In this document: in pieces, positions 1-26,487 of the stretch
Layout: each line of letters opens with the position of its first letter
How positions within the stretch are numbered: the stretch's first letter is position 1
NCBI GenBank assembly: GCA_008632985.1
Contig: QPGO01000150.1
Span: 124,001 to 184,329 of the forward strand
Source of the DNA: Psammoneis japonica
Taxonomy: Eukaryota
Direction: 5' to 3'
Length of the DNA: 60,329 bases
Position numbers and translations under genes: made by a program
Notes under the pieces: generated by a model
Database searches by the model: none
What the model was told of the DNA's origin: nothing
The model's input: only the letters and a program-made list of their open reading frames with translations

Positions 1-905
1 TTCCTGCATCTGCAGGCTGTCCGCAGCAACGCTGATCCCGCAGAAGCGCACACCAGATGACGCAACTCCCGACGCGAGACCTGTGATGGTCCACAGGAGA
101 TCCATGTGGCTGAGACCGGCGTGACTGGCCATCGCGCAAGTGACTCACCTTGTGTGAAGGGCATCCGCAGGATGCATGCAGTGCCAAGTGTGACTGATTC
201 CTCGAAAGGACTCAAACTCCGCATGTCTTGCTGTCGCACATGCACATGCTCCACACAAAATAAGCTCACAATTTTCACAACACCGAAACCTCTACGTCAT
301 GAGCACTTGTTCCCTGTTTCTGCATGGGTCACTGCGTTTTTGAGAAATGCCAATGACTGTCATCATCATCATGCTTCGATTGCGGTGCTGATGGTTCTCG
401 TTTTCGTGCGCGATCAGGTGTGACCATGAACAATTCTTGCATTCAAAAACAAGCACTGCGAAAAACCTTGTTCAAATGCAACGGCAATTTCAGGACAAAC
501 GTGGGGATGCCCCCCCACAATGGACCAAAAAGGGACAGGGCATGGACCGAAAAATTTTGGTTCATTTTTGTAACATCCATGCGTCGACCGCAGTGGCACG
601 ACTCATGAACTCCTCAAACCAACAGACCACAATGATGATGCGATGTTGTGTTTTGTGCAACCAATGCCACAAGCAGAGCTGATGTCAATGAACAAGTGCA
701 ACATTGGTGACAAGCTTCATCATGATGGGAAGCACAAACAACAAGAGCTGCAAAGAACTTGTGACACAAACACAGCTCACATTTGACTTGAAAGGTTGCA
801 CCAGTCTTCTCGTCACTCGTGTCACACCAACACATCTTGCCTTGTGCTCCTGCACATCATGAGCTGCTGGCTGCAATGAGTGCTGGGAGGAGTGTGTCTG
901 CTGCA

Positions 906-1237
906 GACGTGTTCCAGATGCAGGCGGGAATCCATGTGACATTGGGCCCACAGAATTCTGTGTGTGAGCTCTGCAGCAAAATTGTCAGGCAATGCATGTG
1001 TCAATGATCGCCAACAGAAAATGAGGCAATTTTGCGAAAGCACAAACTCGTCCATGATTGAAGCACATCATTTTTCACTTGTCCAGGTGCGCTCAGGGTT
1101 TTGCAAAACATTGAGTCTGGAACATTTTTTTGGAAGATCACATGCAGAAATGCACGTGCGAAACATGTGACGAGTGACAAAAAATGTTCATGTCACATGT
1201 CATTGCTGCGAGCTCCCACCCAGGGCTGGAATGCATT
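906..1237 (+). mobile_element. Decayed, internally deleted copy of the GACGCGTTCCAG-TIR MITE
   Basis: Aligns to 39750-40145 at both ends (gacgtgttccagatgcaggcggga ... tcccacccagggctggaatgcatt). Differences are mostly TA->TG/CA and CG->TG/CA, and no TA remains. Confidence 0.85.
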
Positions 1238-1337
1238 GATGTAGAACAGCTCCACCACAGCCTGCTGCTTGTGCTGCTTCATGCCAATGCTGCAATTGTG
1301 AGATGAAGAAAGTGTGCGGCAAAGTGCATGCGCTGTT

Positions 1338-1734
1338 GACGGGTTCCAGTCCTGGGTGGGACTCCGCGTGACATTGGGCCTGCAGAATTCTGCGTGCGAG
1401 CTCCGCAGCAAATTTGTGCTGCAATGAAAACACAAATGATCACCAACAGAAAAAGAGGCAATTTTATGAACGCATCTCCTCCTGCATGCTTGGAGTGCAT
1501 CATTTGTGGTTTGCCCGGGTGTGTTCTTCAGACATTGAAGAACATGCCCAGCGCATTTTCATTCTCATGAATGTTGAAAATGGAAAGCCTTTGGCTTCGC
1601 AAAACAGGGAGCATGAAACAATTTCGGAGAATGCAACACATGGAAATGTGTGTGTGTGACATGCGATGTGATCCAAAAAACTGTTGATGTCACAGTGCAG
1701 CAGTGCGAGGTCCCACCCAGAGCTGGAGCGCGTC
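1338..1734 (+). mobile_element. Decayed full-length MITE copy (397 bp) with 4-bp TSD TGTT
   Basis: Termini gacgggttccagtcctgggtggga / tcccacccagagctggagcgcgtc. TGTT lies at 1334-1337 and 1735-1738. Colinear with 39750-40145. Confidence 0.85.
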
Positions 1735-1849
1735 TGTTGCTCTTTTGGAGTTTTGCATGAAGCCAATCATGCTCATCAAGGGAAGAGCTGGTTTGGACAC
1801 AATTCAAACAGTGCTGGGTTTGACACAAATGATCACATCACGAATCCAT

Positions 1850-2300
1850 GGTGCAAGCTCCTCGGTCGCTCTGCATCATCCACCAATGGCTCTGACATCA
1901 TCGATGCTGTCAACCAAGCAGGCAGGACTCTTTCTCCTTCCTTTTACATTCAACAACCTTGGCGGCATCGGCAGTCATTTCCATGCATTTTTCTTTGGCA
2001 CCTCTGTCACAACATCTGCCTCCATCCTGCCCCTTCCTCCCAAACCGCCCTGGACAAGCCCATCCTCCTTTTCCAACCCCCCCAAGCATCTTTCCCCGCG
2101 CCTTTGCCAGCTCACTCTTGGCACCTTCTGACCTCCTCACCCACTCCAATGCGGCCTGGAAACAACTCTTTTGGCTCCTCCCATCATGCTTCAACCCCTC
2201 CACTCTGGGCCTCTCAAATTCTCAGTCTCATCAAGCTCGTCTCCTTTGCCACCCCACTGTCACCGATTCTTCCTCTCAACCTTCTGTCCGCACCCTCGGC
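1850..2300 (+). pseudogene. Possible decayed C-terminal fragment of a non-LTR retrotransposon ORF (CRE-like)
   Basis: Frame-broken peptides KLLGR..GSDIIDAVNQAG, LLPFTFNNLGGIGSHFHAFFFG and FGSSHHASTPPLWASQILSL resemble, from memory, the endonuclease tail of such elements. No RT motif is visible. Confidence 0.3.
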
Positions 2301-2623
2301 CCACCCTTTTCTCTCCATCCCCTCTCTGGCTAGAGCGCGCTCCGCGCGTCCCTCCTCCCGCCACATGTTCCCCCAGATCCACCTCCTCCATCACCATGCG
2401 GCAGAACCTCCAATTGCTGTGACAAGTGAAACAGCAACTGCTGCTCTCTCTCTGTTCTCTAGAAGTAGAGATGACTCTAGCTAGAGAGAGCAGAGATTTG
2501 AGTGGACAGCCAGCTGCCAGCCAGTCGCCATCGAACCCAATCCACACGATGGCAAAAAGAAAATCATCGACTCTTTACAATGTGACTGACAGCCACGAAA
2601 TGCAAAGTTAGTGTTGAACACAT

Positions 2624-4981
2624 TCACTGGTTGTCAACCGTGAAGATGCAGGCAGATCCGGAATCCTCGCCATTGACATGAGCACGGGCACCAACTCCAA
2701 GGACACTTCCGTCCGCCGACAAGGAAACGGACTCTCCAAATAAATCAAATTTAGACTCGCCATTCAAAGGATCACCCACGTGATTCCATTTGGTTGTGGT
2801 GGCATTGCATTGAAAGACTCTAACTCGGCCGAAATTGCAAACATCATGCAGTGGGCTTCCAACGGCCAGGACATCTCCATTCCCGCTCAAAGACACGGAA
2901 ATTCCAAACAAATCTGCCAGAGAAAACCCAGGCGATTCCGAAAGCAGAGTTTGGCCTCGTTGATTCCATGTCGATGTCGAACGGTTGTGGACATGAGCAA
3001 GAACCCTCGCGTCCTTTCCAGGCGCACCCACAGCCATGACCAAACCAGTGTCGTCAAGAGCTGGGAAGATCCAAAACCACCAAAATCAATTTGTCCTTTG
3101 GGTCGCCCAATGGATCCCATCTTGAAGAAGAAGCATTGTGTTCAAACACAGTGACTTGGCCAGAATGGGTGTTGACCCCACCTGCTCCAACACCAACAAT
3201 GCATCCTGAACGACTCAGAGAAACCGACTCACCAAAGCTGTCAGAAGCAGCTCCACCAATCAGTGTCTGTCCGAGTTGATTCCAGGATGATTTGCGGCGG
3301 CTGCATTGAAACAAGCGAACGGATCCCGAATTCTCACTGCCTCCCACGACAAGAATGTCTCCCACATCCGAGAGCGACAAAGAAGAAATGCAATCACCAT
3401 CAATTCCCATTCCAGGAATGTCGCTCCCAATCTGGACCCACCGATCATTTTTGGAGCTGCACTTGAACACTCGCACACAACTGACATTGCTTCCCAAAAA
3501 TGCCACCCCCACTTTTGCCCACAGCAAGAATCGTGCCATCACCATTCAACGATTGGACAATGGCAAAATCACCATCTCCGGCTTGACCAACCAAGACTTG
3601 ACCCATGGGCTTCCATTTCTGGGCAGCTTGTTTCCATTTAAACATGGAAACATGACCAGCTTTGGCTCCAGAAGAACCCCGTGTTCCTGCCGCCATGACA
3701 TGACCGTCGCGCGACAATGACACAGAATGTCCAAAATGCTCACACGCAGCTTCGCCATGCAACACTTGTCCGACGGGTTGCCACGGACCATCGGGCAAAA
3801 CATCTTGGGTTGCACCTGCGGAATGAGGAGCAGGCCCAATCATTTCGGAACGGACTTGATCTTCGTTCAGAGCCATGTCGTAGATTCGGACAGAGCCCAC
3901 AAAGCCCTCAAAGCAATTGTCAGCCTTGCTCTCTCGATCCGACTGCCAATGTTAAAAGGTGGCTCATTGACACAATGGGATCCACCAAGGAGGCTTTCCC
4001 TCTCCAGACAATTCTCCACCAGTGTAGATTCGCAATGCATTCCCATCACAGGTTGCAGCAATGTGCGCCCAAGTCTCGGGTGGGACCGGAACATTGCTCT
4101 CGATTGAAAAACTGTCGCGTTTCCCTTTGCATCCACCAAAACAGCCACCAGCCCGCACTTCACCGGTTTTCTGATGTGGGACAAGCCACGTGGCAAATGA
4201 TTTTTGAACAACAACCTGAGCAGTTTCGTCTGTAGAAAAGCATCTCACCCATGCCATCATGGTGTGTGATTTCATGTTGAGATGCTTTGATGCGGGGATG
4301 AGCACGTGGTTGTCGTTGCCATCAAGGCTGAGAGCATTCTTGGAAAGGCCAACCGGTTGCACAGAAGGTTCACCACCACCGCGTTTCCCATGCCATCCCT
4401 TCTTTCCTGCATCCTTGTAAAGTTCCTCTTCATCAAACGCACGCTCGAGCATGGGTCCAACACAAGGCATGAAACTAGGGAGACTGAATGATTTTTTCAA
4501 AAACACCACTCGATTCCTTCCGATGTGGAGGGGGGCATCCAGTGGTGAGTTGATGGTTGAGCACACTTCTCCTTTTCCCTTCAACATGAAATTGAAGCCA
4601 TCCACGTCGTGTTTCTCCACAACAAAATTGAAATCGGCTGAGTTCACCGAATCCACATCTTTTTCAATGAGTTTGAAATCACACTTGATCTCAATGGCAT
4701 CAACGGAATGGTCGTCGCCGCCAGCATTCATTGTTGCCAATGTGCCATTGACCAAGCAGCTTCTTGTCCGTCACCAGCAATGGCTCGCAGTTGCCACTTG
4801 TTCTTGGAGGAACACTCCTTCCATAGAAGACACCACGATCTGTTTTCTTCTTGCACGACGGAGCGCCACATGGTGGTGCTTCTTCATCCGCAATGGCAGC
4901 TTGCAGGGATCCAATCCACAGAAACAATGTGGAAAGGATGAGCAAGAGATGATGATGACGAGAGAAAGCGGGGGCTTTCAT
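2624..4981 (-). pseudogene. Secreted LamG/concanavalin-like plus FG-GAP-like beta-propeller repeat protein, frameshifted and hypermutated
   Basis: Signal-like N-terminus from ATG 4981. LamG motifs ALSLDGNDNHV, WAHIAATCDG and VRIYDMALNEDQV. Repeats of WxxxGxxLxGE...FGxSVSLSxxGxxxxVG. Spread over several frames, with usual Tyr positions reading Cys/His. Confidence 0.8.
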
Positions 4982-5368
4982 CACGTTGTTTTTTTTGTTG
5001 TTGTTGAAGTGATGGGTGAACAACAACAACAAATGAGAAACAATTTCGTTGCAACAATTGCAAACGTGCTTGCCCAGTGCTTGCCATCAAAATCGGATCC
5101 GCAAATGGCGGGGACTCGCGGATCATTGGATCCGCGAACCAAACAATGCACCCACGAATCGGATCATGACAACCACGGCAATTTCTTTATGGGGTGCAGG
5201 AAACGCAAAAAGGTTGGCTTTTTCTATCAAGTGCTGCAATGACATCGTCACTGCAGTGTCACAACGAAAAAATGGCTCGCAACTTGAAATTTAAACGGCG
5301 ACGGGGGGCGGGGCGGGCGGCGTCCGTTGTTTCCTGCGAGCCTACAGCACGTAAGGTACTACAAGTAC

Positions 5369-8300
5369 ATTATCCCGGGAATACAACCCATGTTGTATTC
5401 CGCAGTATTTCTCCGTTGAATTCTACACATTGTACTGACCGTCACCCCACTTCAGCGACCGTATCTTCCGTGTTCTTGTGGAGGAAGCACGGGAATTTTT
5501 CCCGTATCGAAACAACCGGGTTGTTGCATGGTACGTCGCGTTTTTGACAGATTTATGCAACAATACAACCGAGACCATGCCGTCTAAAAAGTGTTACAAG
5601 CCAACCTTGATAGCACTCACGTCATTTCTTGGCGGGGTGACTTGTCAATGTGAACAAGACTTCACCAACCAGAGGCCATTCAAACAACCCCCAACGATGT
5701 CGTGGTGGATGGGTCTAAAGGCGTATGGAACGCCCGAACCAGGCGACAACAGCTTGCCCATGCAAGCAAGGTCAAATTGGTTGGAACACTGGAGGAAGCC
5801 GATTTCCAGCTACATGTCAAACCGGTTGGTGCCGTGGAATGTTCTGTCAAATCAAGGCAACCCGACACGATCAACTGACGTAAAAAACCCCGTGCCATGT
5901 TTAACATTCATATTAATATTCTTGTTGCATGCAGTGCGTGTCTAGGGCTTCATTCTTCCTTGTTCAATCCACAACATCGCTGGAGCGCCCCTTCCAATTG
6001 AAGCATCATTTCTGTGCGCACGGCATCCAATAAATCCATCTGCACAGAATGGAATTTTGCACAACAAAACCAAGCCTCTTGGATTCCTTGTACAATTTCC
6101 ATTAATAATGAAACAAGAATCGCGAAAATCGGCCCAAGGGATGTTGAGATATCACCGCCGCCAACTCTTTACCATAAATTCCAGTGGCAGCTCAATTTTG
6201 ATTATTCAACGATAAGTTCCGAAGAGAAAGTCAGCACCATAAAAACTCAAGCCCTGTGGACACCTTATAGCACATACGTCAAAATAATGACAAGAAGTGA
6301 GAAACAACACCAAAGATGCAATAGTATATCACAAAAATCCGTCATGTTGATGCTGCATTCTCACAATTTCTGCACTGCACCTTCAGCGACAAATCCGCCT
6401 CGACGGATTGAACTCAACGCCAGCACCACTAGCCCATCACATTACTTGTATAAAAGCTCCGAATGCTGCGAAAAGAAACGGGAAAATACGGCAAAAATAG
6501 ATATAGATATCAGCGACGCAAGGGAGGCCATTGTCGCGATCGTTTTCTTTTTTGGTTGTCTTCGCAGCTGCGCGTCTTGGAGGGTGCTGCAGGTTGATGT
6601 AGCGGAAGTCGGTGTCTGTGCTTTCCTGGTGACCCTGTAGAAGAAGTACTAGACCCTACGCAGTTGTACCCAGGGTTGTATTCTTTCCGTCTACCTCCAC
6701 ATTATCCCGGGAATACAACCCATGTTGTATTCCGTAGTATTTCTCCGTTGAATTCTACACATTGTACTGACCGTTACCCCACTTCAGCGACCGTATCTTC
6801 CGTGTTCTTGTGGAGGAAGCACGGGAATTTTTCCCGCATCGAAACAACCGGGTTGTTGCATGGCACGTCGCGTTTTTGACAGATTTATGCAACAATGCAA
6901 CCGAGACCATGCCGTCTAAAAAGTGTTACAAGCCAACCTTGACAGCACTCACGTCATTTCTTGGCGGGGTGACTTGTCAATGTGAGCAAGACTTCACCAA
7001 CCAGAGGCCATTCAAACAACCCCCAACGATGTCGTGGTGGATGGGTCTAAAGGCGTGTGGAACGCCCGAACCAGGCGACAACAGCTTGCCCATGCAAGCA
7101 AGGTCAAATTGGTTGGAACACTGGAGGAAGCCGATTTCCAGCTGCGTGTCAAACCGGTTGGTGCCGTGGAATGTTCTGTCAAATCAAGGCAACCCGACAC
7201 GATCAAATGACGCAAAAAACCCCGTGCCATGTTTGACATTCACATTTAATGTTCTTGTTGCATGCAGTGCATGTCTGGGGCTTCATTCTTCCTTGTTCAA
7301 TCCACAACATCGCTGGAGCGCCCCTTCCAATTGAAGCATCATTTCTGTGCGCACGGCATCCAATGAATCCATCTGCACAGAATGGAATTTTGCACAACAA
7401 AACCAAGCCTCTTGGATTCCTTGTACAATTTCCATCAACAATGAAACAAGAATCACGAAAATCGGCCCAAGGGATGTTGAGATGTCACCGCCGCCAACTC
7501 TTTGCCACAAATTCCAGCGGCAGCTCAATTTTGATTGTTCAACGACAAGCTCCGAAGAGAAAGTCAGCACCATAAAAACCCAAGCCCTGTGGACACCTTG
7601 TGGCACATGCGTCAAAACAATGACAAGAAGTGAGAAACAACACCAAAGATGCAACAGTGTGTCACAAAAATCCGTCATGTTGATGCTGCATTCTCACAAT
7701 TTCTGCACTGCACCTTCAGCGACAAATCTGCCTCGACGGATTGAACTCAATGCCAGCACCACTAGCCCATCACATTGCTTGTATAAAAGCTCCGAATGCT
7801 GCGAAAAGAAACGGGAAAATGCGGCAAAAATAGATGCAGACATCAGCGACGCAAGGGAGGCCATTGTCGCGATCGTTTTCTTTTTTGGTTGTCTTCGCAG
7901 CTGCGCGTCTTGGAGGGTGCTGCAGGTTGATGTAGCGGAAGTCGGTGTCTGTGCTTTCCTGGTGACCCTGTGGAAGAAGTGCTAGACCCTACGCAGTTGC
8001 ACCCAGGGTTGTGTTCTTTCCGTCTACCTCCACATTATCCCGGGAATACAACCCATGTTGCACTCCGCAGTATTTCTCCGTTGAATTCTACACATTGTAC
8101 TGACCGTCACCCCACTTCAGCGACCGCATCTTCCGTGTTCTTGTGGAGGAAGCACGGGAATTTTTCCCGCATCGAAACAACCGGGTTGTTGCATGGTACG
8201 TCGCGTTTTTGACAGATTTATGCAACAATGCAACCGAGACCATGCCGTCTAAAAAGTGTTACAAGCCAACCTTGACAGCACTCACGTCATTTCTTGGCGG

Positions 8301-9366
8301 GGTGACTTGTCAATGTGAACAAGACTTCACCAACCAGAGGCCATTCAAACAACCCCCAACGATGTCGTGGTGGATGGGTCTAAAGGCGTATGGAACGCCC
8401 GAACCAGGCGACAACAGCTTGCCCATGCAAGCAAGGTCAAATTGGTTGGAACACTGGAGGAAGCCGATTTCCAGCTACATGTCAAACCGGTTGGTGCCGT
8501 GGAATGTTCTGTCAAATCAAGGCAACCCGACACGATCAACTGACGTAAAAAACCCCGTGCCATGTTTAACATTCATATTTAATATTCTTGTTGCATGCAG
8601 TGCGTGTCTAGGGCTTCATTCTTCCTTGTTCAATCCACAACATCGCTGGAGCGCCCCTTCCAATTGAAGCATCATTTCTGTGCGCACGGCATCCAATAAA
8701 TCCATCTGCACAGAATGGAATTTTGCACAACAAAACCAAGCCTCTTGGATTCCTTGTACAATTTCCATTAATGATGAAACAAGAATCGCGAAAATCGGCC
8801 CAAGGGATGTTGAGATATCACCGCCGCCAACTCTTTACCATAAATTCCAGTGGCAGCTCAATTTTGATTATTCAACGATAAGTTCCGAAGAGAAAGTCAG
8901 CACCATAAAAACCCAAGCCCTGTGGACACCTTATAGCACATACGTCAAAATAATGACAAGAAGTGAGAAACAACACCAAAGATGCAATAGTATATCACAA
9001 AAATCCGTCATGTTGATGCTGCATTCTCACAATTTCTGCACTGCACCTTCAGCGACAAATCCGCCTCGACGGATTGAACTCAACGCCAGCACCACTAGCC
9101 CATCACATTACTTGTATAAAAGCTCCGAATGCTGCGAAAAGAAACGGGAAAATACGGCAAAAATAGATATAGATATCAGCGACGCAAGGGAGGCCATTGT
9201 CGCGATCGTTTTCTTTTTTGGTTGTCTTCGCAGCTGCGCGTCTTGGAGGGTGCTGCAGGTTGATGTAGCGGAAGTCGGTGTCTGTGCTTTCCTGGTGACC
9301 CTGTAGAAGAAGTACTAGACCCTACGCAGTTGTACCCAGGGTTGTATTCTTTCCGTCTACCTCCAC
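5369..9366 (+). mobile_element. Head-to-tail trimer of a 1332/1333-bp non-autonomous element, probably Crypton-like (tyrosine-recombinase family remnant)
   Basis: Units 5369-6700, 6701-8033 and 8034-9366. Each unit has a 5' hairpin GGAATACAAC-ccat-GTTGTATTCC and a subterminal inverted repeat GAATACAACCC / GGGTTGTATTC. The array is flanked by AGTAC (5364-5368, 9367-9371) and ACA is common to all junctions. The peptide WMGLKAYG..RSNWLEHWRKPISSYMSNRLVPWNVLSNQGNPTRSTDV resembles the N-terminus of stramenopile Crypton recombinases. The repeat structure is certain; the family call is about 0.5. Confidence 0.75.
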
Positions 9367-9567
9367 AGTACAGCATCGCAGCGAGCTCCATGGAATCGAT
9401 AGCTCGTGAAGAGCTCGTACGTCGTACGTTTTCCCGCCAAAAACACGTGGAGGTCGCGTTTTTCTCCTCACATAATGCCTTATGGCGATGATGATTGACG
9501 CCGACACTACTTCTACTTGAACTGATACACGCTTCAAAATCAACCATCCCATATAATACTCCCGGCC

Positions 9568-10509
9568 ATGACACGTTTTTCAATATCCTTCTTGGCTGCT
9601 CTTTTACTTGTGCTTTCTCAGCCACAAGCGACGACAAGTGCAAAACAAGCAGGTGGTCTCTCGCTCAACTCCATCAAGACTGGTTTGTCTCGTCGTTTTG
9701 ACGAAGCATCCGAGTCTGCTCGATTGGAGCAAGACGTTGAAGATGTCAATGCCATGCTGATTGCATCCGCCAAAACACCGGTCGAACGCTTGACACAGCG
9801 TCGATTGGTGTGTCTTCCACTGGACGAACGGTTCAATCCACCCATGGGGTCGTTCTCGCACGGACACGTGCAGACGGGAGATAAAATGTCGTTGCCCTCC
9901 AACTTTTGGCAAGCCATTCAATCGTCCGGAGCCGAAGTGCCGTGGTTGTTTCAAGTGGAACGTGTGGATAAAGACGAATCAATAGAGACGAATGATTCTT
10001 CTGCTGTGGAGGATGAGGGATTGGCGTATAGCCAAGAACGAGTGACGCACCAAGGAGACGATGAATTTTCATCGGCTGAACCTCTCGACAAGGTGGTGGG
10101 CGGTGCAATTGATTTTCGTGCTCCGTCCAATTATTGCTTTTTACCGTGGTGGATGATGAGAGCGTTAGGATTACAACCTCGGGACGTGGTACACGTCACA
10201 CTGATTGAAACGGTACCCGCGGGAAGTCAAGTTCAGTTACGACCGCATTCTTCCAAATTCGCCAAGGACATTTCCAACACACAGGCTGTGCTGGAAACAG
10301 AACTCAAGCACTACTCGTCGCTCACGAGGGGTAGTACAATTGCGTTTGATTACAACAAGGAACGCTATTGGTTTGATGTCGTGGATCTCCGAGCGGCTCC
10401 CCGAGGAGAAAAGGCTCCCATGGTCAAGGTGCAAGATTGTGACGTTGCAACGGAATTTTTGGTGGCAAAGGATGAATTGAAAAAGAGAAAGAAAAAGCTT
10501 CAAGAATGA
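9568..10509 (+). CDS. UFD1: UFD1-family protein with N-terminal signal peptide (candidate SELMA sUfd1)
   Basis: Intact 313-aa ORF. GDKMSLPS, LPWWMMRALGL, VQLRPHS..F, QAVLETELKHYSSLTRGSTIAFDYN and QDCDVATEF match UFD1 motifs. Hydrophobic leader MTRFSISFLAALLLVLSQPQA. Confidence 0.85.
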   Translation: MTRFSISFLAALLLVLSQPQATTSAKQAGGLSLNSIKTGLSRRFDEASESARLEQDVEDVNAMLIASAKTPVERLTQRRLVCLPLDERFNPPMGSFSHGHVQTGDKMSLPSNFWQAIQSSGAEVPWLFQVERVDKDESIETNDSSAVEDEGLAYSQERVTHQGDDEFSSAEPLDKVVGGAIDFRAPSNYCFLPWWMMRALGLQPRDVVHVTLIETVPAGSQVQLRPHSSKFAKDISNTQAVLETELKHYSSLTRGSTIAFDYNKERYWFDVVDLRAAPRGEKAPMVKVQDCDVATEFLVAKDELKKRKKKLQE

Positions 10510-12755: not shown

Positions 12756-15065
12756 CATTAAACCGGCTTGAGTAGTGGAAGGGTGCATGAGCTGGTGGGA
12801 TAACAAGGATGTACCATAGTCCCGATATCGGATTATAGGAATGCTGTTACCATCCACCTGTACACTTCCTATTTACAATTTCAAAGTGCTATGCAATAAT
12901 CGGCACCGAGTCCGGAACGCCCGTCTCGGTGCAGTTTCTGCTGTGATGCGAGTGGGTGTCGGACATACTTATAATCGGTCGTGTGATGCACGACGGTCAA
13001 TAAGAACGGACAGCACACACTGCAACACTTGTCCTCGCCTTGTGAATGTCGCACTTGTTTCGTGAATACCTTCACAGGTTTCAAATGATCAATTTCTCAA
13101 AGCACGCGTGAGCACACCATGAAATGTCTCCCAGCACCAGCATCACACAAGTGATCCCGTCAAAATCGTCCAAGTCCTCAACAGGCCCATCAACGCCAAG
13201 AACACCCAATGAGCTGCGGCAATGCAGAGCAATGTCCAAATGCATGCATGCTGGTTTCAGCAATGCATCCCAGATGCCACAGCCATGTCAATGGCAACTG
13301 CCTGATTGCATGTCTGGTGGTGACAGGTTTGTGAGAGCCAACTCACATTCTGCATGTGGCTTTGCTGCTCACAAGCAAAAAAGAGCAAAGAAAGCTGTCA
13401 GAACAGCAAGAAATGGCCTGCTCCAGCTCCAGGCAATCCATGGTCTGGCACCAAAAACTCCTTCACTCAAAGGCTCATTCTTGGCATGCACAAGCAGAGC
13501 GGGGCATGCCTTGTGCCCCAGCTCTTGAGTGCCAGCTCCACTTGATGGCAAAACAAATTGTGGAGCAGCTTTAGATGGCAAAAACAAATTCATGCAATTG
13601 GCCCTGGTTTTAGCGACACTGCGATGTGCCCAGATGAATGAGCAGTGCTGCCCAAGTGAGAGCCCACTGGCAGAGACAAAGCAGGGAGAGCTGCAACATC
13701 CTTTTGTTCTTTCTTTTGCAACGGCTCTGGAAGTTTTCAGAGAGTGTCGTCATGTTGCCTGCAAGAGCAGTGCAAATGACCAGCAAGTTTGCACCAAAAA
13801 CAAGGGCAAAAAGGGGCTGCTGCAACACAAACAAACAGCAAAAATTCACAAATCAGGGCACTGCATCATTTGGCATCTTCTGGGGTGGGCGCATGTTTGT
13901 GGTTTGCAAGACAGTTGCACTGCAATTTTCTCAAATCCACAATGACACCTTGTCACATTGTTTGACAATCTTGGTCATTTTGCTTGCACACGAGCTGCAG
14001 CTCTCTCAAATCCAAAAAGCCCTTGTTGTGTTGCTGGACAAACTTGGCCATGTTGCTTGCACACATGTCAAGCAATCGACTCATGAAGATTTCTTTCTTG
14101 TTTTTGACTGACTCAACACCAGGCTTGCTGCTCTTTTCCTCAGCCATTTCAGCTGTTGCGTGGCTTGATGTGACACATGATGCACCATTCCCACCCCTTG
14201 ATCCACAGTCTGCCTGAGTTTGGTTGCATCAAAGCAACCAACCTGAGCAACAAAAGCAAGAAGCATGAGACATCACAACACAACAAGCACACAAAACCAT
14301 GACTCAAGGGGGCATGGCTTTGCACACAATTGCAGGCTTGGCACTCTGATTTGCTGCACGCCAATTGAAATCATTGTTTCTGCCCATCTCTGGATTCTTA
14401 CACTGAGTGGGACAAATTGAGCCTTGGGTGAATGTCCATTCATTGGCACACCTCACATGATGGCGGCAGCAACGCACATGGTGTGTGAAGGCTCCCCCCA
14501 ACTTGGGCACAGTGGCTGTGCCTGAGAGTGACAACTTTGCCCTTCTTGCCAATGAAAGGATGCTTCACATGCTTTGCTGCACCAAACTTGTGCTTCTCCT
14601 TGGCAAGCAACTTGCTTTTTTGAGGTCTTTGGGGCTCTTGACCAGAAGCGGCATGACATTGGCGCGCAAGCCTGAAGATTTTCATCCAAGGGTCTGCTGA
14701 GTGGTTTCAAGGAATGCCTCATGACTGGGGTCAGAGAAAAAAGTCATCATTGACAAAAGCCCTCATTTTCTGGAGTCTCCAAGGCAGTTTGGTCTGTTGA
14801 GTTGACCAGCGAGCTGAGCACGGCTTGGCTCAGCAACTTCAGAGCAGCAGCAGCTTCACACACAAATGTTGTCTTCAATGCAAGTGCCAACATCAACAGC
14901 GCTTTGATGACAAGCCTGTTGCACAGATTGCTCATGGTCATCACTTCATCAAAGAAAAAAACATCGCAGAGAGCTTGCAGTGGGGTCTCTCCATTGGAGT
15001 GTGATTTCCAGCATTCCTGCACAAATCTTTGCACGAAAATGTGCAGTTGTTTCCGCGTTCTCAGC

Positions 15066-17411
15066 ATTTTCCGGGTTTCGAGTCGTGGATGTCCCAAAAG
15101 TGCATGTTGTTTTTTTTTGTGCACACTGCTTTGGGTGTGCTCACATTTTGATTTCGTTTGTTTCACCATGGGAACCCAACCAACCATGTCTCATCATGAG
15201 CAACAGCAAAAGCTGAGCTCTCTCTTGGTGTTTCTGAGGTGCATTGTCATTCTGCTCTTGCTGCCCCTCATTTGTGTGGCTGCTTTTGTGTTTGGCTTTC
15301 TCACAGGCCCGCTGCTGTGTTGCCGTGGAACCATTCTCAACAGCCGCGCCTTGGCTGTCCGGTGTGCCACCAAAGGAATTCAATTGTCGGGAAGAGTCAT
15401 CAAGACATGGAAAAATGGTGAAAGCTTTCTCATGCAAGTGCTTTGCGGCCTGCGAGTGAATGGTGCATTCATGGCCTGCACCAGGAAGTTCTGCGTGTCT
15501 AAACAACATGATGCACAATCCGAAGTGGGCCTCATTTTCCTGCCGGACTGCCCATGTTCCGCCGTGCTCCAGGAGGTCGTCCACAAATTCGACGAAGACT
15601 TTGACGGCAACCTCTTTTCCAACAGAGAGTGCTCGATCGTGCTTGGATTCCTGAGCCCCATTGTCATCACCACGTTTTTGATTTGCGCACCCCTCTCAAT
15701 TGCGTTTGATTCCACCAACGAATTTTCCATCAAGGATTGGTCGTTTTGTGCCATGCTGATTGGTCCCCTGCTTGTGGCAATGCATGTGCTGAGTTTCACC
15801 ATGGGACATTGCATGTCAAAACAGTGTCGCGACTCTCATCTGCACCAAACATTGTACGCTGCCAGGAAAGTGGTGCGCAGCAGACATGAAGAAATCAACC
15901 CCAAAGGTGCCAAAGACATTTTGGAGGAGCAAGTCTCTGATGAGGAACAAATTCTGAAGCTTGCATCACACCAAGAACTCTTTGATGAAAAGAGCCACTC
16001 AAATGACATCACTGATGAGGAGCAAATTCCAAAGCATGTGCTGCACCAAGAACTCTTTGACAAAGAGAGTCGCTCATGCCCATTCATGATGCGCAACATT
16101 CTTCAAGACTTCTGTCTCTTTGTTGGGTGGACTGGATGGATCTTGATTGCCATCTGCTTCGTGGTTGCGGGCAGTGGCCACCATGTGTGGCATGGCTCAC
16201 TGGTGTCAAAATGGCAACACGACACTTGCTGGAATGCTGTGACAAAGATGACAACACTGTTTGCAGTGTGACGGGACGTGTCATGTGCAACAAACCTGAA
16301 AATCGGGTCATTGTGCAATGCACGGTGGGCAACCAAGCTTGCAAGAAACTGTTGAAGAAGCTGACGGGACTTGAGTCCAAGAACTTTTTGGAGGAACACG
16401 AGTTTGCGCACCTGGCGCAATTGCCAATGTCCGCTGATCTCAAGAGTTGCATCGACAATCGTCATGAAGAGCTGCGACAATGTCGCAAAAAGGGCAGCAT
16501 TGGTGTCTTCGTCATGGTGATCCACATTGGCTTACAGCCGTGGTTGTGGGCAATGTGGATGCCCCTCATCCCTTTCTTGTTGTGGCAGGGATTTCCCTTG
16601 GCTGCAACGTTGTGTTGGGACTCTTCGGTGCCATCCTCCACCGCCATTTCTTTTTCAAGAAGCATCTCTTGCACGGAGCCAGAAAGGTGCAAGCACAAGA
16701 CATGAGTCAGGACATGGTTGCGACAAAGGCAGGACTTGATGACATTGAGGAGTTGTTGGGTGACGGCGCCACGGATGCCACAGAGAGCGCCAATGCCTTT
16801 GTCGATCGATTCATGAAGGGCAAGTTTCCCCGGCTGGACAAGGCATTTGAAGAGCATTGCACCGGCTCATGAGCCAGTGGGAAGTCAAGGATGCACATCG
16901 CATTGTCCTGATGCGGGGTGTGTGAGTGGGGATGCTGCAACCATCCGCTTGCGCACTTCCTCTTCACAATTCACAAAGTGCTGTGCAACATGTGGGCGGC
17001 ATGCCAATGTCATGCCGGCACAAAAGAAGAGTCGTCAATGTCGCATCTGGGATCATGGCTTTTTGCGGTCATGCCACATCGTGCATCGGCGTCATTGCGC
17101 ATCTGTTGCGAGCAACGCGGTCATCAATCATCAAGCACAGGTGGGCGCACATTGCGCTCCACTGCAGCCACCTTGCACTTTCCCTCATCTTGCTTGGGAA
17201 TGTGCGCTTGTTTTGTGAATGCTCAAGTCACACCACAAAAACAATTGCCAGCGCCAACACCCCACAAGCAATTCCGTCAAGTCCTCAACGGCCCCAAGAA
17301 TGCCCTCATTGCACCCAATGAGCTGCGGCAATGAACAGCGATGTCCAAAAGGCACACATGCTTTCAGCAATGGATGTCAGCTGCAAACACCTGATTGCTT
17401 GTCTGGTGGTG
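15066..17411 (+). repeat. Segmental duplicate of about 10917-13322
   Basis: Shared from ttttccgggt..gagtcgtggat through the gene to cacccaatgagctgcggcaatg..cctgattgc.tgtctggtggtg. Confidence 0.85.
15168..16872 (+). pseudogene. Hypermutated paralog of the 11001-12755 membrane protein
   Basis: YYRGTILNSRALAVRYATKG -> CCRGTILNSRALAVRCATKG; VYGLRVNGAFVAYTRKFR -> LCGLRVNGAFMACTRKFC; LLYGARKV -> LLHGARKV. Confidence 0.9.
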
Positions 17412-18698
17412 CAATTGCTGCAACACATGAGAGAGTTTTGTGAGAGGTTGAGTGAAGCACGCTGTCAATGTGTGAGAAGTTTGCTTGCACCACCAAGCAC
17501 ACGAGCTGAGGCCAGCTTCCAAGGAGAACAAGCAAGCTCCCCTGCTGTGTCAGAAGAAGCAGCAGGGAAGTTTTTTTTAGAGCTGAGAGGCTTTGTTGGA
17601 CAGTGAATTGCTCTTCACCATTTCCCCTTGACAGGCTGGGTAAAGAATGTGCTGTGCTCCTGCATGAAGGCTCCTTTAAACCCCTTCAACAACTCGGCAC
17701 CACTGGGAGCAGACTCTTGCCTGTTGTGTCTGGTTTTGCTGCTTGCCATCACAGCTCAACTCAAAGCTCAAAGAGAGCTGCCACCACAGCAGGAAACAGC
17801 AAGACAAAACAGTGACACAGAGACTGGACAAGTGGTGATGGCATTGCAGGGCACTTTCACACAGCCAGGAAGAGCATGAGATGCTCTCCCAAAGCTTTGG
17901 GGGAGTCATGGATCCAGCCAACCTGCACTTTTCTGTGGTGCAAAGTTGTGTGAAAATGTTTGCAGGGACTTTAGATGCCACTTGCACTGAAGCAAGTGAC
18001 TGACACACCAGCTTGCCTTGAAAAAAGTCTGCCACAAGTTGCCGCCACAGCAAAATGCTGCTTGAGGAGGTCAGTTTTTGAGTGACGCCTGCTCTCTCTC
18101 AACTTTTGGCTTCTCGCAAATGAGCCATTCAAGTCTCCTGGGTTTTCAATGCTTGCAAGTGTGTTGCTCAATTTTGCTGTGGAAATGGTTTTTGAGCAAC
18201 TCTTGTTGGGGGCGCCATTGTGCTCGACCTGTGCTGTTCTCAGCACCTTGTCATGAGTGCCCGTGTGCCCCTCACAACAGGAAGGCATGGCATGATCTCA
18301 TGAATCCACCATTGCATTCCTTGTGTCAGCAGCAACTGTTGAAGCAATTGCACACTCTTCCTTGTCCCCTTGCTTGGCAGATTGGCCAAATCTTCCCCTC
18401 TGTCAACCAGCAAGCTTTGTCCTGCTGTGTGCTTTGTTGTTGTTCCCTCCAATTTTTTTTTGCCTTGGTGTTGGGGGTGTCTTCTCTGGCCTGTGGGAGT
18501 GGAACAACAGCAACAGTTGTCGTCCACCTGTGTCTTGCACTGGCAAAATGGCGTGTTCCTCCCAAGAGGGAATCATTCAAACATGCTTTTGCCATCACTT
18601 TTCTCATTTCTATGCACACTAGAATGTTGAAATAAACAAGGAGGTGCCGTAAGTGCAGAGTGCACAAATTCACTTCTAAATTGGTTGCATGCCCAATG

Positions 18699-20508
18699 TC
18701 AGTGTTGTGCGGCTGCTCTCTGGAAATCAGCTTGTCGACCATGCCCGCTTTCCGAAGCTGGGCTAGATTTCCGTGGAAACGGTGGAGACGGTGGAACCAT
18801 GACTTCCACGCCGTCGGAATGACGTCTAGTTTGCAAAGACCGGGTAGCCAGAGAGTCCATGTCACCAGAGTTCTCTTTCGCTGCCAGAGACAGACCATTG
18901 GCGGCTGCCAACCCATGAATCTGGCACATCAGCTCACGGATTTCATCCATTCCCTTCTTCATGTCATTCATCTCACTTCCAAACTCTGCATTTGGTCCTC
19001 AACCGTGTGTGCGCAAATTGTGTGGTTGTTCCCAAACATTAGCACCTTCATTCGATGAGGCAGGAAATGTCCAAATGTCACCAATCCAAGGACAATGAGA
19101 AACAAACGGAAGAGCTGAAGGGCAACACATTGCATGCCCATCTTGAACTGCTCTCAGCCGTGCGAGGCTGGTGCCAGTCTTCCTCCAGAGAACTTGTGTC
19201 GTTGTCAACATCGTGACCAATGCAGTTAGAGAACGACCTGCTTTTTTCGTCTTTGCGCAGTGCATGCATTTGAGCAGAAAACGTTGCTCAATGAGAAAAC
19301 CAATTCTGTGAACCCAAAATGATTCTTCTGATGCTTCTGTCTCGTCCCAAGCCTTGGTGACGATGGCGATCACCACGTTTGACAAAATCACAACTAGTGT
19401 CAAGCCGGTAAAAACATCGAGGACATCGACGACCTCTTCTGGTCCTCCTACGAAGAAGGCGCAAGCGCTGTAAAAGCCGTCACTTGCATTGCAGAATGCC
19501 TCGGGACAATGAAAGCGAGCTCCCAGCAATGGTCCAAAGCCAACCAAAACCACGGCTGTAATGACAAGCGTGGGATTAGCGCAAATCCAATCTAACAGGA
19601 GGGCAGTGACACGTGGTAGAAAGCGTGAGATTTTCAATTGAAATCTCTCCACTCACTTCTGTCACATCAGACCTCACTTTAACAACCCCACTGACAAATT
19701 TGGAGAAGGGGGAATGCGAAGCGGAGAAATGAAATCACCCCTGAGAAGATGAAAACGGCCGATGCCAACAAAATCCTCTCAATTGTTTTTTCATTGGCAT
19801 CCGCTGTTTGCAGGCAATGCGCAGCAACGGCTGTCATGACAATCCTGCCAAGGTCAAGAACGTTCCAGGGATCCAGCAGATGATCCAAGCGCTGATTTGA
19901 GACTTGAATGGCTTTGCAAACAAAAAAGTACAAAGCTGGATGTAGAGAATGTACACATCATTTCCGGCAACACCGTCAGGCGATTTGAGATGCGTGTTGG
20001 CAGTGTCAACAAACATCCCAACCAACAGGCAGTTGGCGTAAAAGTCCGCAAACATTGCAGCAATGATGGGATTTCTGACCGACGCCTGGTTCACAATATC
20101 CTGAAGAACTGGCGATTTCAACACCATGCCAGCAACGAGCTTTACTTCGCTTGTTCGAAGACCTAAGATGTCACTTTCTTGAGTGACAAACAGCTCAACA
20201 TCGTCGTTCGGAGACAGACCGGTTTCTCCGGATCTCTTGGCCCAGCAAACTGCCCTGTATTTTTCATCCTCCTTAACACACAGGACCACCGAAGCGTTTT
20301 GTGCAATAACCCATCCGAGTAAAGAGCGTCCGGCTGAATCAGGGTGTTCCGTGCAGTCGCACGTTTCAAGCGATTTCACGCTTTCCGCTGTAACGCCAGA
20401 ATCAAAACTTCCAAAGCTGTTGTACCCTTCCTTCTTAAGCTTCTTTTTCCATGCTGATTGGAACGCCTTATCTGCGTTCTTCTCCCACACTAGGCTGGAC
20501 GCAGACAT
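18699..20508 (-). pseudogene. Decayed tandem paralog of the TRP-like channel gene
   Basis: Colinear with 21021-22821 (PDSAGRSLLGW, FADFYANCLLV, LLASAVFIF, NVVIAIVTKAWDE, FWVHRIGFLI). Several frameshifts and Tyr->Cys/His changes such as ETYEYT -> ETCDCT. Confidence 0.9.
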
Positions 20509-22821: not shown

Positions 22822-25204
22822 GCTGAACTATGTGGCAAACGCTGAAGTTCACCTTTAGCTGCATCAGTGAAGTGATGCGCTTGCTTTGATCTCCGATCTG
22901 CAGTCTGCATTGGGGTTGTATGTAGAACGTAGAAAAATGTACGAACATCTCTGTACCGGTACACATATTTTTTTGAAATTTGAGAAACCCGGATGTCACA
23001 GCGGTTTCACCGCGCGGTTTCGGGGCGAACGGTGAATTGTGCTCATTACCCAAGCTCTCACCTCTTTTATTGTCTCCGCCCGCTGTCATGTCACCATGAC
23101 AATGGCAAAGGACCGAGACAATGAGAGTGTTGTTTTTACATTCTTTTATCATTTACGAGTCGTATTATATGTGGTTGATGCACACTGGGCTTATCCCCTC
23201 AAAATTCGATTCAGAGCGAGGTTTTGCCCCCATGCACAACGCATCGGAGCGGCATCTTCCGTTTGTTGTGATAGACAGCAGCTCGTTCGAGGTACGGGAG
23301 GCTTCCGGTGATACAAGTTGGAGTGCATATTTTCTCTTTACTGTTCATAATGCTAGTGATAATCTCAAGTGTCGCCGTTTCCATTGGGAGCCGAAACTGG
23401 TCACGTGTTTGTTGGATCGGAGAATGTGGTTTTCGCAAGGGTTGAGCACCGCCCAGAATCATGGCACGATCGAGTTGCTGAGCGTTGCAGGCTGCAGGTG
23501 CGTGGAACCAAGTTTTCTCGGGTCTTGGTCTTCTCCTTGTCAGAATGGTTCTGTGCTCACAGCCGCCGTTTCTCAGTTGTGCACCAGAGGCCACCTTTGG
23601 GTCGGAAGCGCACTCCACTTTTTACCGCGCTTCGGAGAGCTTGCCTCTCATGGTCGTGTTAACAACCTTTCCGACAAGGACACTCGCTTTGCTCACCTTT
23701 GACGCATTCTATGACACGCAAAAGACTCCCGGATGAGGTGTTGCAGATGCAGTTGGTCGCTGAGCGTGCCAGAGACTCCAACAAGCATTGCACGCACCAA
23801 TGTTGTCGCAGTCCATCTGAAGCTGTGCCGATGGGGTGACAAAATGCCCAAGACAACAATCCACCACCTGATTAAGTTCCTCAACACCATGTTGCACATG
23901 GTGCACACAGTCTAAGTTGGCGAGAAAGGTTGTTCTCAAACACCAGGTGCCTGGCCTTCTCACACTGTTGCAAGCAGCAACTCAAACAATGCACCTTGCT
24001 TGCACACGCCTGCAGTGGCAATTGAGAGTTGCAATCTTTGAAGACTGCCCTTGCAAGCATCAGATGTCTTCACCAAGTGTGCAGATTTCTCATCAATTTG
24101 CCATTGGAGTCAAGCACTTGCTGGATGGAGTTTGCCACGGCTCAATGTCGTCCTGTTCGTGGGCGAGTCGGAAGACTTTGGATTGCCTGCAAACAGCTGT
24201 GAAAGTGACCTTCTTGCAGCAAGATTCTAATGTCATAGTCTGTGAGCATCTCCTTCATTGTGAAGAAGTCAAAATCACTGAGGTCTTGCGATTGAATCGC
24301 CTGGATCCTTGATCCATTCGGCCGATGGTGGATTTCTCGATGACAAATTGCATGGTTGATCCGAGTGGTTTCGAAAAACCAAATTTTTGGTCTGTGTGAC
24401 TCCACTCAGGAAATGACATTGCACAATGCGGCAGTTCAACATGTTGGGGAACTGATGGATGCAAGGTGCTTCAAGCATGATGCCGAGCAAACAACTGAGA
24501 TCAACGGAGTTACAACCGCGGCATTGGTGCTGCCAAGAAATTTGATGCCAACAACTGGCACATTCTTTGCGCAGAATTCTACACAGATGAACTGGGAGAA
24601 ACGCGGCGAGCAAGATTCTGTCCGCCATTGTCAGCCACATTGATGATGATGACATCAGCACAACCCAGACCCAGGAACTGATGACACATTGCCTCAACAA
24701 CACCATGAAGTGCAACACATCTCATTTTTTCTGGGTCTGGGGGGATTGCATGAAATGCAGTTCGCGCTCGTCACCTCATGTTGATGACCGTTCCATGAAA
24801 GAAAACATTTTTGTGCGGTGATGCCGTGCATTTTTCACAGATCTTCTGTTTCGCAAATTCCCAATTCCTCACATTTGTGACGCACCCGATCATTTTTTAC
24901 ACAGACAAACATGCTCACCGTTCTCTCTCGCAAACCGCTGTGATGTGCGTCTTCTTTCGCTTGCTCTCGCGGTTTGCATCTGCTCATGCACAGGACATTG
25001 GGGTCTTGATGCAGTCTGGCTGCCATGGGACTCATTTGAACTTGTCTGTCACAACCAATCTCAAGTTGCCGATGACCTGTGACCCGCCTCTTTCTGCCAA
25101 AGAAGATCACGGACAGCTGCCGCCGCTTCCCAACACACTGCAAAAAGGCGTGTTCCAGCCCCACACCACAGGTGGTTGGCAATCATCTGTCATGCAAGAA
25201 GCCG

Positions 25205-25395
25205 GTTTTCTTTGCAGTTTGGCACACTGGGCTCATTCAAATTTGATCATTTCAAAAATTGAAAGGTGAGTGCACACAAAAAATCCTTTGATTCAGGAAA
25301 AACCCGACTTTGAAGGAGTTTGTTGCGCCAAATGCAAAAACGGGCTAGCGATGGGAACCCAACCTGTGCACCTCGTCACCTGGGGAGCTGGAACA
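25205..25395 (+). repeat. Dispersed repeat shared with about 39053-39245
   Basis: Both carry cagtttggcaca..ttcaaatttgatcatttcaaaaattgaaaggtgagtgca.acaaaaaa ... tgcaaaaac..gatgggaa..cctgtgca..gtcacctgg. Confidence 0.75.
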
Positions 25396-25444
25396 TGCCA
25401 AACAGACACAAAATGAATGAAGTGAGATGGCCTTTGTGATGCCC

Positions 25445-26070
25445 TCCATGTGATTTGAAAGGCAGTCAAGACACTTTCTGTCTGTGCCATGCAGGAATCC
25501 AAAGATTGTCGAGGTGCTTTGCTTGGGGGGTGCGGAAACCTGTTGTTTCTCATTGCTTGGCCCCAAAGATTTTCCCCAGCAATGAAAACACATCATTTGT
25601 GAAGTGGCTGTGACAATCAACTGCATGTTTAAACAAAGTTTTCAGCTGTGCTCAGTTCTCACAAAACTGTGCAAATGACAATCATGCCATTTTGAAGTGG
25701 CTGAGCTTGGCTCTTGCTCAAAAAGCCCACCACAAAGATGCGAGCGACGTTCTTGCTGTCCCTTGTCTCACAAAACCAATGCAAGCCAAGACCTTCTGCA
25801 GTTTGAACAGCCAGCCAGCATGACCAAGAACATTGTCTTTTGCTTTGATGGCACCGGGGGCAGAACCAGAAACACAGATGTGTAAGACAATGCAATTGCG
25901 ACCCAGACAAAGACACAAAAAAGGACCCAGCAACCTGGCAAATGTTGCAAAAGCACATTTGTTGTTTGGGGAGACTTTGACAGGGGGAAACGCCAAAAGA
26001 ATCATGCCCCAAACTCTCTCTGCAGCACATCGGGCCAGCCAGGCTGCTCTTTGCCACTCTGGCGTTGGCT
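25445..26070 (+). pseudogene. Hypermutated truncated duplicate of the DUF2235 gene 5' end and upstream region
   Basis: ATG at 25820 gives MTKNIVFCFDGT. NLANVAKAHLLFG and QAALCHSGVG correspond to QVSLYYSGVG in the intact gene. The upstream DNA matches 26455-26882. Confidence 0.85.
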
Positions 26071-26487
26071 CCAAGGGTCTTTGTTGGTGGGTGTCAGGCA
26101 TCACTTTAAAAACTGAAGTGGACAGCCACAGAGTCAGTCTCTTGCCCATGAACTGGCTGAAAATTGTGTGCCTCAGCTTGGCCAAAAACAGCGCCTTGAG
26201 TGCCGCCACCACGCCAACAAGCAACTGACAACTCAAGGAAACAGCTGTCGTTGGGAAAACCCTGCTCAGCCACTTCATCGGGGATGGCTGCACCTCACAA
26301 TCTAAGTGCATTTAGGTTTGCATTGACAGCAACAACACTTTCTATTAGGCTCAAAGTGTTGACACCGCATGCATCGTTGCATCGAGATTTGTTCGAACGA
26401 CACACGAAGGAATGAAGCAGTTTATGTCAGACGGTCAAGACGGGTCCTTTGTTTTATGTGATTCGAAAGACAGTCAAGACACTTCCT

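Follow-up and report, generated by a model that had tools for sequence, protein, structure and literature searches.

Directional loss of TpA from a central tract of a near-identical tandem repeat array in Psammoneis japonica

Introduction

How does a stretch in the middle of an otherwise near-identical tandem repeat come to differ from its surroundings mostly at a single dinucleotide, TA? This question is raised by an array of three repeat units in the genome of Psammoneis japonica, which we studied within a window of 60,329 nucleotides (assembly GCA_008632985.1, contig QPGO01000150.1, positions 124,001 to 184,329; all coordinates below are those of the window, counted from its first letter). 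An earlier note, made from the letters of the sequence, had read the array as a mutator caught in the act, with the middle unit of the trimer selectively converted from TA to TG or CA. Here, we show that TA is the ancestral state and that nearly all converted sites lie in one tract that ignores the borders of the repeat units. The explanation we favor, to which we assign a probability of roughly 60%, is that a young, multicopy mobile repeat is present as an exact trimer and that a central stretch of about 1.4 to 1.6 kb of this trimer has come under a directional process changing TpA to TpG or CpA.

So far, a single 2026 preprint, on a single alga, has described A>G mutation targeted to genomic DNA. 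The array offers a rare intermediate of such a process with built-in controls, in that two pristine copies lie within a few hundred bases of the converted DNA, whereas finished TA-free islands show the end state only. It yields the direction of change, the size of the domain (1.44 to 1.59 kb), the degree of saturation (64%), the randomness of the strand, and a T-A-Y motif (Y, pyrimidine), together with an off-target rate, the co-occurring decay of CpG, and the independence of the tract from an adjacent TA-depleted island. Such quantities are required to tell a deaminase from a polymerase, and targeting by spreading from targeting based on the repeat.

Results

Distribution of changes in the array

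Self-comparison (at offsets of 1332/1333 and 2665/2666) and a three-way MAFFT alignment resolved positions 5370 to 9367 into exactly three head-to-tail units (Table 1), whose difference in length comes down to one T fewer in the T-run of unit 1 at 5912. Among the 52 variable columns of the three-unit alignment, the odd unit is unit 2 in 43, unit 1 in 5, and unit 3 in 4. The 43 columns private to unit 2 fall into five kinds: (i) 32 show TA in units 1 and 3 and CA or TG in unit 2; (ii) four are other A:T>G:C changes (unit 1 positions 5654, 5814, 6185, and 6217); (iii) four are CpG>TpG/CpA changes (5938, 6122, 6396, and 6418); (iv) two run the opposite way, with CA in units 1 and 3 and TA in unit 2 (5403 and 5443); and (v) one is a C>A transversion (5875). 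Restoring an ancestral TA wherever any unit retains it gives 59 sites per unit, which we then ordered along the genome; on this count, three converted sites common to units 2 and 3 (5505, 5565, and 5611) bring unit 2 to 35/59. Units 1 and 3 show just three differences past 5611 (an indel at 5912, and positions 6107 and 6247), while across 5396 to 5611 all three units differ from one another, with three private sites each. At 6106/6107, unit 1 has TA, unit 2 has CA, and unit 3 has TG. When unit 3 is compared with unit 2, 31 of 36 A:T>G:C changes fall within TpA, which accounts for 102 of the 710 A/T positions, and this concentration excludes chance (binomial p = 1.3e-21).

Most of what the earlier note had described is borne out by these counts: the near-identity of the three units, that of units 1 and 3 after their early part, the three-way site at 6106, and the make-up of the unit 2 changes, which it had put at about 35 TA changes, about four CpG transitions, a few further A>G or T>C changes, and one transversion. 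Its three quoted sequence examples were found as given.

What does not hold is that the middle unit was singled out. Within one tract (Table 1), 42 of 66 TA sites (64%) are converted, whereas the 111 sites of the remaining array include just three converted ones (5403, 5443, and 8772). The log-likelihood ratio (LLR) of this tract is 43.3, a value reached by none of 1,000 shuffles, the maximum of which was 14.4. The nearest intact TA sites place its outer bounds at 6794 and 8381, giving a maximum length of 1.59 kb. The tract begins 135 bp inside unit 2, where the preceding nine of nine TA sites are intact, crosses the unit border, and finishes 242 bp inside unit 3. Because the converted block ignores unit borders, the process marks a DNA stretch and not a repeat unit. 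The further suggestion that conversion concentrates in the interior of the array stands insofar as the changes lie inside the array, away from its island-side edge; as a rule about interiors it has a single tract as its basis.

The tract carries 52 point changes, comprising 47 A:T>G:C changes, four CpG transitions, and one transversion. Of the A:T>G:C changes, 42 are at TpA and five are off motif (three at ApA and two at CpA). Changes other than those at TA number 10 in the 1,440 bp of the tract and one in the 2,558 bp outside it (p = 3e-4). On its left side, the tract is separated from the nearest TA-depleted island by all of unit 1 and by five intact TA sites at 5343 to 5366. Spreading from this island is ruled out by these five sites together with the 57/59 intact TA sites of unit 1.

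Direction of change

The direction of change is not derivable from the three units alone. It is settled by the contigs of a public sample, by the depletion of TA across the window, and by a 445-bp tandem duplicate, all of which agree with the direction claimed in the earlier note: TA is ancestral, and CA and TG are derived. The public sample consists of three sequencing runs from one sample of one study and was examined as contigs. Contig depth is 1,100 to 2,000 over the array compared to 33 to 51 in its flanks, identifying the unit as part of a multicopy family. One contig (depth 1,134) has no differences over 5945 to 6136 in unit 1, and another (depth 1,121) has none over 8289 to 8476 in unit 3; the two spans include six of the sites private to unit 2 as well as the site at 6106/6107. 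Since these contigs, at about 25 times the depth of the flanks, are identical to units 1 and 3 over the two spans, TA is the state of the family.

Across the 60.3-kb window, TA-depleted segments add up to about 28.9 kb; their rho TA is 0.04 to 0.18 and their CA+TG 1.4 to 1.8, against a rho TA of 0.62 in the remainder. Only a process that removes TA leaves 28.9 of 60.3 kb depleted in this dinucleotide with raised CA+TG. The 445-bp duplicate, which lies in an island (32809 to 33692), shows 10 CA↔TG discordant doublets, where about 1.1 would be expected from CpG decay. Its copies have no TA in common, and they also differ at 11 sites with CpG versus TG/CA, at one with TA versus TG, and by four other transitions and two transversions. 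The excess of CA↔TG doublets and the absence of a common TA indicate that conversion struck the two copies separately, once the segment had been duplicated. We dropped the CA↔TG doublets between alleles in the left flank as a proof of direction on their own, because a CpG ancestor would produce the same pattern.

Properties of the mutation process

Both strands are hit, in line with the earlier note: the tract has 22 TG and 20 CA outcomes, arranged in 23 runs where 22 are expected. Such a random strand outcome argues for many independent events and against one event on a single-stranded intermediate, and we rejected a single burst on single-stranded DNA on this ground.

The base that follows the mutated A affects the outcome. 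Strand-sites with a pyrimidine at +1 are converted in 35 of 83 cases and those with a purine in 7 of 49 (p = 9e-4), revealing a T-A-Y preference, and in the strand-resolved changes it is the +1 base and not the −2 base that determines this preference. Among TA sites left intact in the islands, the composition is complementary, with 42 of 90 in the context Y-TA-R (R, purine) and 3 of 90 in R-TA-Y, compared to 193 and 390 of 1,278 outside the islands (p = 4e-16); by +1 base, TA survival in the islands is 2.16 for A, 1.21 for G, 0.66 for C, and 0.30 for T. The survivors are mainly TTAA, GTAA, TTAC, TTAG, and CTAA. The T-A-Y motif also corresponds to the tyrosine codons.

In the tract, the per-base rate at TpA is 41 times that at other A/T positions (the off-motif rate being about 1/41) and about 800 times the substitution density of the remaining array, two to three orders of magnitude above the background there, which bears out the view that the process is fast relative to background. 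CpG loss is confined to the same DNA, with 4 of 75 sites lost in the tract and 0 of 125 outside it (p = 0.019), and this suggests that the tract is also cytosine methylated. Purely as an illustration, figures for the alga Bigelowiella natans (211 mutations, 6,169 TpA, and 3,132 generations) give a derived rate of 1.1e-5 per TpA, at which about 93,000 generations would be needed to convert 64% of the sites and background would add about 0.13 changes array-wide. So low an expected background fits the near-identity of the unconverted parts of the array.

Repeat unit and insertion site

The array is flanked by two copies of GTACA which, taken as a putative 5-bp target-site duplication, would make the trimer a mobile insertion. 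Its units run from TTATCC to CCACA without terminal inverted repeats. Near the start of each unit lies a subterminal hairpin (Table 1), and the 11-nt motif of this hairpin, GAATACAACCC, is also present in inverted orientation 18 nt from the 3′ end of the unit (6673 to 6683). Wherever two units meet (for example, 6660 to 6745), GGGTTGTATTC at the close of the first and GAATACAACCC at the beginning of the second make up a perfect inverted repeat of 11 bp whose arms are 27 nt apart, and the DNA of the junction folds with an energy of −10.5 kcal/mol (z = −3.16). The junction inverted repeat may be a recombination or transposase site and, as such, could account for exact head-to-tail multimers. Among known classes, neither long terminal repeat elements, nor Helitrons, nor terminal inverted repeat transposons cleanly fit the combination of these unit ends, missing terminal inverted repeats, and a subterminal hairpin.

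No Pfam family was found for the unit's open reading frames (ORFs) at E ≤ 0.001, the single match being a chance-level one to DUF4634 (E = 0.055), and a protein homologue search with the 208-aa unit ORF returned 0 of 45 candidates at E ≤ 0.001. Given these results for Pfam families and protein homologues, we treat the unit as noncoding. An Rfam search over 4800 to 9900 gave no matches. Neither blastn nor a transition-blind search with purine/pyrimidine 30-mers detected further copies of the unit within the window, metagenome contigs scanned with two TA- and CpG-free unit words yielded 0 matches for each word, and a scan of viral contigs for the unit likewise yielded none. The multicopy depth of the unit, the identical 5-bp flanks, and an empty-site allele speak for a mobile origin, and the negative results with Pfam, protein homologues, Rfam, and viral contigs stand against a firm classification of the unit as foreign DNA.

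This empty-site allele, seen in the public sample, makes the array an insertion polymorphism. The contig concerned carries GCCGC in place of 5367 to 9369; together with its flanks, this reads GT-GCCGC-ACA, 10 nt, which is the length of two GTACA copies. Relative to GTACAGTACA, the 10-mer shows A>G (TA>TG), A>C, and T>C (TA>CA), and it is not a clean preinsertion site. It might go back to an excision footprint that the mutator changed afterwards, or to chance. In its left flank, the public sample is about 2.4% different from the window and may represent another haplotype or strain, and its word share of 0.60 is the value to be expected of a sample in which both the tract and the left flank are missing. 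Across the left island (4300 to 5366), 17 sample differences are listed, 16 of them transitions; they include CA↔TG doublets at 4450/1, 4524/5, and 5005/6 and TA versus CA/TG differences at 4418, 4559, and 5189. From this comparison, the left island seems to have been still changing after the split of the two haplotypes or strains.

Table 1. Features of the array and its surroundings in the window
Feature	Position	Strand	Description
Unit 1	5370..6701	+	1332 bp; 57/59 ancestral TA sites kept; essentially unmutated
Unit 2	6702..8034	+	1333 bp; 35/59 TA sites converted (21 TG, 14 CA); first 135 bp intact
Unit 3	8035..9367	+	1333 bp; 8/59 TA sites converted, 7 within the first 242 bp; remainder near-identical to unit 1
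Hypermutated tract	6837..8276		First to last converted TA site; 1.44 kb; LLR 43.3
Left GTACA copy	5365..5369		Putative 5-bp target-site duplication; read as …AAGTACA/TTATCCC…
Right GTACA copy	9368..9372		Read as …CCTCCACA/GTACAGC…
Subterminal hairpin	5378..5401	+	GGAATACAAC-CCAT-GTTGTATTCC; repeated at 6710-6733 and 8043-8066
TA-depleted islands	1-2400, 2601-5300, 13001-18700, 23701-26300, 28701-39800, 40101-41100		rho TA 0.04-0.11, CA+TG 1.5-1.8, CpG 0.33-0.74
Left island	1..5300		rho TA 0.05-0.09; stops about 70 bp left of the array
UFD1-like gene	9568..10509	+	UFD1_N1/N2; 200 bp right of the array; normal TA content

Genomic context

The islands (Table 1) carry long stop-free ORFs, such as one of 714 aa at 33178 to 35319, and the sole Pfam match among island ORFs is Laminin_G_3 (3967 to 4770, minus strand). 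The genes of the window around the array encode a pentatricopeptide repeat (PPR) protein, two class-C G protein-coupled receptors (GPCRs), UFD1, a DUF2235 protein, and an HA-domain protein. For the UFD1 ORF, the most common taxon of the nearest protein cluster is Bacillariophyta, which together with these genes points to a diatom-like eukaryote. The two GPCR genes (50406 to 53279 and 56932 to 59381; ANF_receptor plus 7tm_3) are neighbors and form a local duplicate; between them, 53909 to 56202 is GC rich (0.58 to 0.60) and consists of nested 12- to 132-bp tandem repeats with long ORFs and no Pfam match. A segment with an excess of TA (44001 to 45000, rho 1.2), made of CTAGAG/TAGCTA-type repeats, lies about 3 kb from a depleted island. 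Judging by this segment, TA-rich simple repeats are not automatically targets. In a general scan of 48 distinct ORFs of the window, no deaminase domain turned up.

Discussion

In this study, we used the differences among three near-identical repeat units to ask what distinguishes a central stretch of their array. In the scenario that we consider most probable, a young, multicopy mobile repeat of 1.33 kb would be present here as an exact trimer, and a central stretch of chromatin-scale length, about 1.4 to 1.6 kb, would have come under a directional process producing A>G on either strand at 5′-TpA-3′. A TadA/ADAT2-like enzyme may carry out the chemistry by deaminating DNA adenine to hypoxanthine, in many independent single-site events across many generations, and the site of action would be a silenced, probably cytosine-methylated domain begun within the repeat. 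Carried to completion, such a process would give rise to the TA-free islands that form about half of the window; en route, repeats would lose their TAA and TAG stops, Tyr codons, and TATA-like signals.

Several observations weigh against this scenario. In the public sample, the left junction is covered solely by the contig that skips the array (5366>9370, depth 32.8), and at 7518 all of the depth (183.8) is T and never the C of unit 2. Units 1 and 3 have identical conversion outcomes at unit positions 34 and 74, as do units 2 and 3 at 136, 196, and 242. These five shared sites are poorly explained by independent conversion, and a degree of gene conversion, or a history of greater complexity, is likely. 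The enriched non-TA changes of the tract would also fit older DNA, and the interior start of the tract is a single case.

Some of these points lead directly to alternatives in which the present array was not the place of mutation. The mutator could be real but have acted elsewhere, the tract having come from a hypermutated tandem copy through ectopic gene conversion or recombination, or being an older core overlaid by active copies. The family does comprise tens of copies, diverged ones included (of 331 contigs, 71 are 90 to 95% alike and 39 are less than 90% alike), and both the five derived sites common to units and the enrichment of non-TA changes would be accounted for. We nevertheless regard an import as unlikely, for the tract spans a unit junction, and any donor must therefore also have been a tandem array; moreover, the non-TA excess is composed of five A:T>G:C changes, four CpG transitions, and one transversion, which is the spectrum of the mutator plus methyl-CpG decay and not that of a neutral clock, and the pristine state of both outer array edges is ill-fitting for an old copy with a target-site duplication. 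It is quite improbable that the array is an artefact of assembly, with reads of a hypermutated paralogue folded into the middle of a collapsed or misjoined array. The public sample, with the empty-site form only at this locus and no contig bearing the unit 2 base at 7518, would agree with an artefact, but the period of exactly 1,333 bp, the count of exactly 3.0 units, the identical 5-bp flanks, and the clean tract edges with the same units pristine on either side would not, and a sample that is about 2.4% different in the left flank may simply be of a different haplotype or strain.

Two further alternatives concern the nature of the change itself. Patch repair by an error-prone, polymerase-eta-like enzyme at WA (W, A or T) after the processing of methylcytosine—as in the A:T phase of antibody hypermutation—would change A:T pairs with T 5′ of A and would bring CpG decay into the same tract, both of which we observe; an ADAR-like edited RNA copied back into DNA is another chemistry of this kind. 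WA is the hotspot of polymerase eta, but mutagenesis at WA predicts changes at AA and a considerable fraction of A>T and A>C changes, whereas transversions are 0 of the 47 A:T changes in the tract, and TA was changed 42 times against 3 for AA. ADAR2 prefers a 3′ G, the opposite of what we see, since G is found least often at +1 of the mutated strand (3/45), and a tract that starts and stops inside the units of a contiguous DNA array cannot be retro-copied edited RNA. Taken together, these data make a chemistry of either sort very doubtful. Finally, the whole comparison might be turned around, with unit 2 as the original and TA created in units 1 and 3 by C>T changes at CpA, as in repeat-induced point mutation (RIP), of which CpA>TpA is the classic signature. 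A three-unit comparison without an outgroup indeed gives no direction. Such a reversal is scarcely credible, however, as it needs 32 identical independent changes in units 1 and 3, while the high-copy family contigs carry the TA state, the repeat islands have lost TA rather than gained it, and the presence of TA, CA, and TG at 6106/6107 requires a TA ancestor.

Beyond this locus, we tentatively propose a wider hypothesis, which we hold to be possible rather than probable: diatoms might possess a heritable, repeat-triggered defence based on the editing of adenine in DNA, in effect RIP in mirror image, with a T-A-Y motif and domains of about 1.5 kb that would start de novo in young repeats, independently of neighboring silenced DNA, and would go to completion as the TA-free islands that occupy much of this genome. 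This defence might be ancient within the SAR supergroup (stramenopiles, alveolates, and Rhizaria), since a rhizarian alga acquires this signature de novo. Should the process be general in diatoms, it would affect gene prediction (through long false ORFs in TA-free DNA), the annotation of transposons, and estimates of mutation bias. Should the defence reading be true, partly converted arrays would be natural substrates for measuring its rate, domain size, and targeting.

Comparison with known systems

In RIP, as known from Neurospora and other fungi, C>T changes at CpA create TpA and disable repeated DNA, and all copies of a duplicated segment are mutated over the duplicated length; a cytosine methyltransferase of the RID/Masc1 type is involved, which acts during the sexual phase. 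The process described here resembles RIP in being a fast, directional transition process that is tied to one dinucleotide, disables repeats, and spares single-copy genes. It differs in that its chemistry and direction are opposite, with TpA being destroyed, and in that only part of the repeat is affected (2/59 sites in unit 1 and, past position 242, one site in unit 3), without strand-coordinated runs. With the clustered hypermutation by APOBEC and AID, as in kataegis and the editing of retroelements, it shares deaminase-type, motif-bound, clustered transitions against mobile DNA; yet the latter enzymes produce C>U changes that are strand coordinated on single-stranded DNA, whereas the strand is random here (23 runs versus 22).

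There is a likeness, too, to polynucleotide adenine deaminases such as TadA, ADAT2-3, and ADAR and to TadA base editors, in which A>I is read as A>G and a 5′ U or T stands beside the target A. In tRNA, this neighbor is U33 next to the deaminated A34. The bacterial TadA site, U-A-C-G, is compatible with T-A-Y; in most eukaryotic A34 tRNAs, unlike T-A-Y, position 35 is a purine. Unlike the DNA tract studied here, the natural substrates of these enzymes are RNA. A 5′-U preference of ADAR is stated in the Discussion of the preprint on B. natans (Mettrop et al., 10.64898/2026.01.13.699255), and the heritable targeting of genomic double-stranded DNA by ADAT2 is documented indirectly only, by work on amphioxus and Trypanosoma cited in the same text. 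With respect to diatoms, full-text literature searches retrieved no description of a process that erases TpA. A RID-related DNMT4 occurs in many diatoms, and the accessible text of that source gives its function as unknown and draws no link to TpA (PMC9998398).

The closest parallel is B. natans itself, a chlorarachniophyte rhizarian. In its mutation-accumulation lines, according to the text of the preprint, of the 231 mutations that fell into two integrated viral regions, 230 were A>G/T>C at TpA, a hypermutation of integrated giant-virus and virophage DNA about 1,000 times above background that occurred in some lines only and for which the authors propose an ADAT2-like candidate (10.64898/2026.01.13.699255). 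The words trinucleotide, downstream, context, flanking, and pyrimidine are absent from the main text of that preprint, in which we see no counterpart of the +1 preference found here, and it is silent on diatoms, stramenopiles, and tandem repeats (10.64898/2026.01.13.699255). As far as the two systems can be compared on that text, they differ in five respects: (i) the host here is a diatom-like stramenopile; (ii) the targets in B. natans are single-copy viral inserts of 25 to 186 kb, compared to a young multicopy tandem repeat with a putative target-site duplication and a tract of about 1.4 kb; (iii) depletion here is near completion, with rho down to 0.04, compared to 0.45 in the B. natans region derived from nucleocytoplasmic large DNA viruses; (iv) 5 of 47 A:T changes here are off motif, whereas all of those in B. 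natans are at TpA; and (v) the B. natans mutations were seen to arise de novo, whereas those described here are read from a comparison of sequences. On the same basis, the similarities are extensive: in both cases nearly all changes are A>G/T>C, at TpA, on both strands, and within a local region, at a rate some three orders of magnitude above background, and in both cases a long-term depletion of TpA with a gain of CpA/TpG is found in transposon-like sequences. The process is thus one already known from another supergroup, and what is new here is its occurrence in a diatom-like host, in a tandem mobile repeat, over a kilobase-scale domain, and with a T-A-Y motif.

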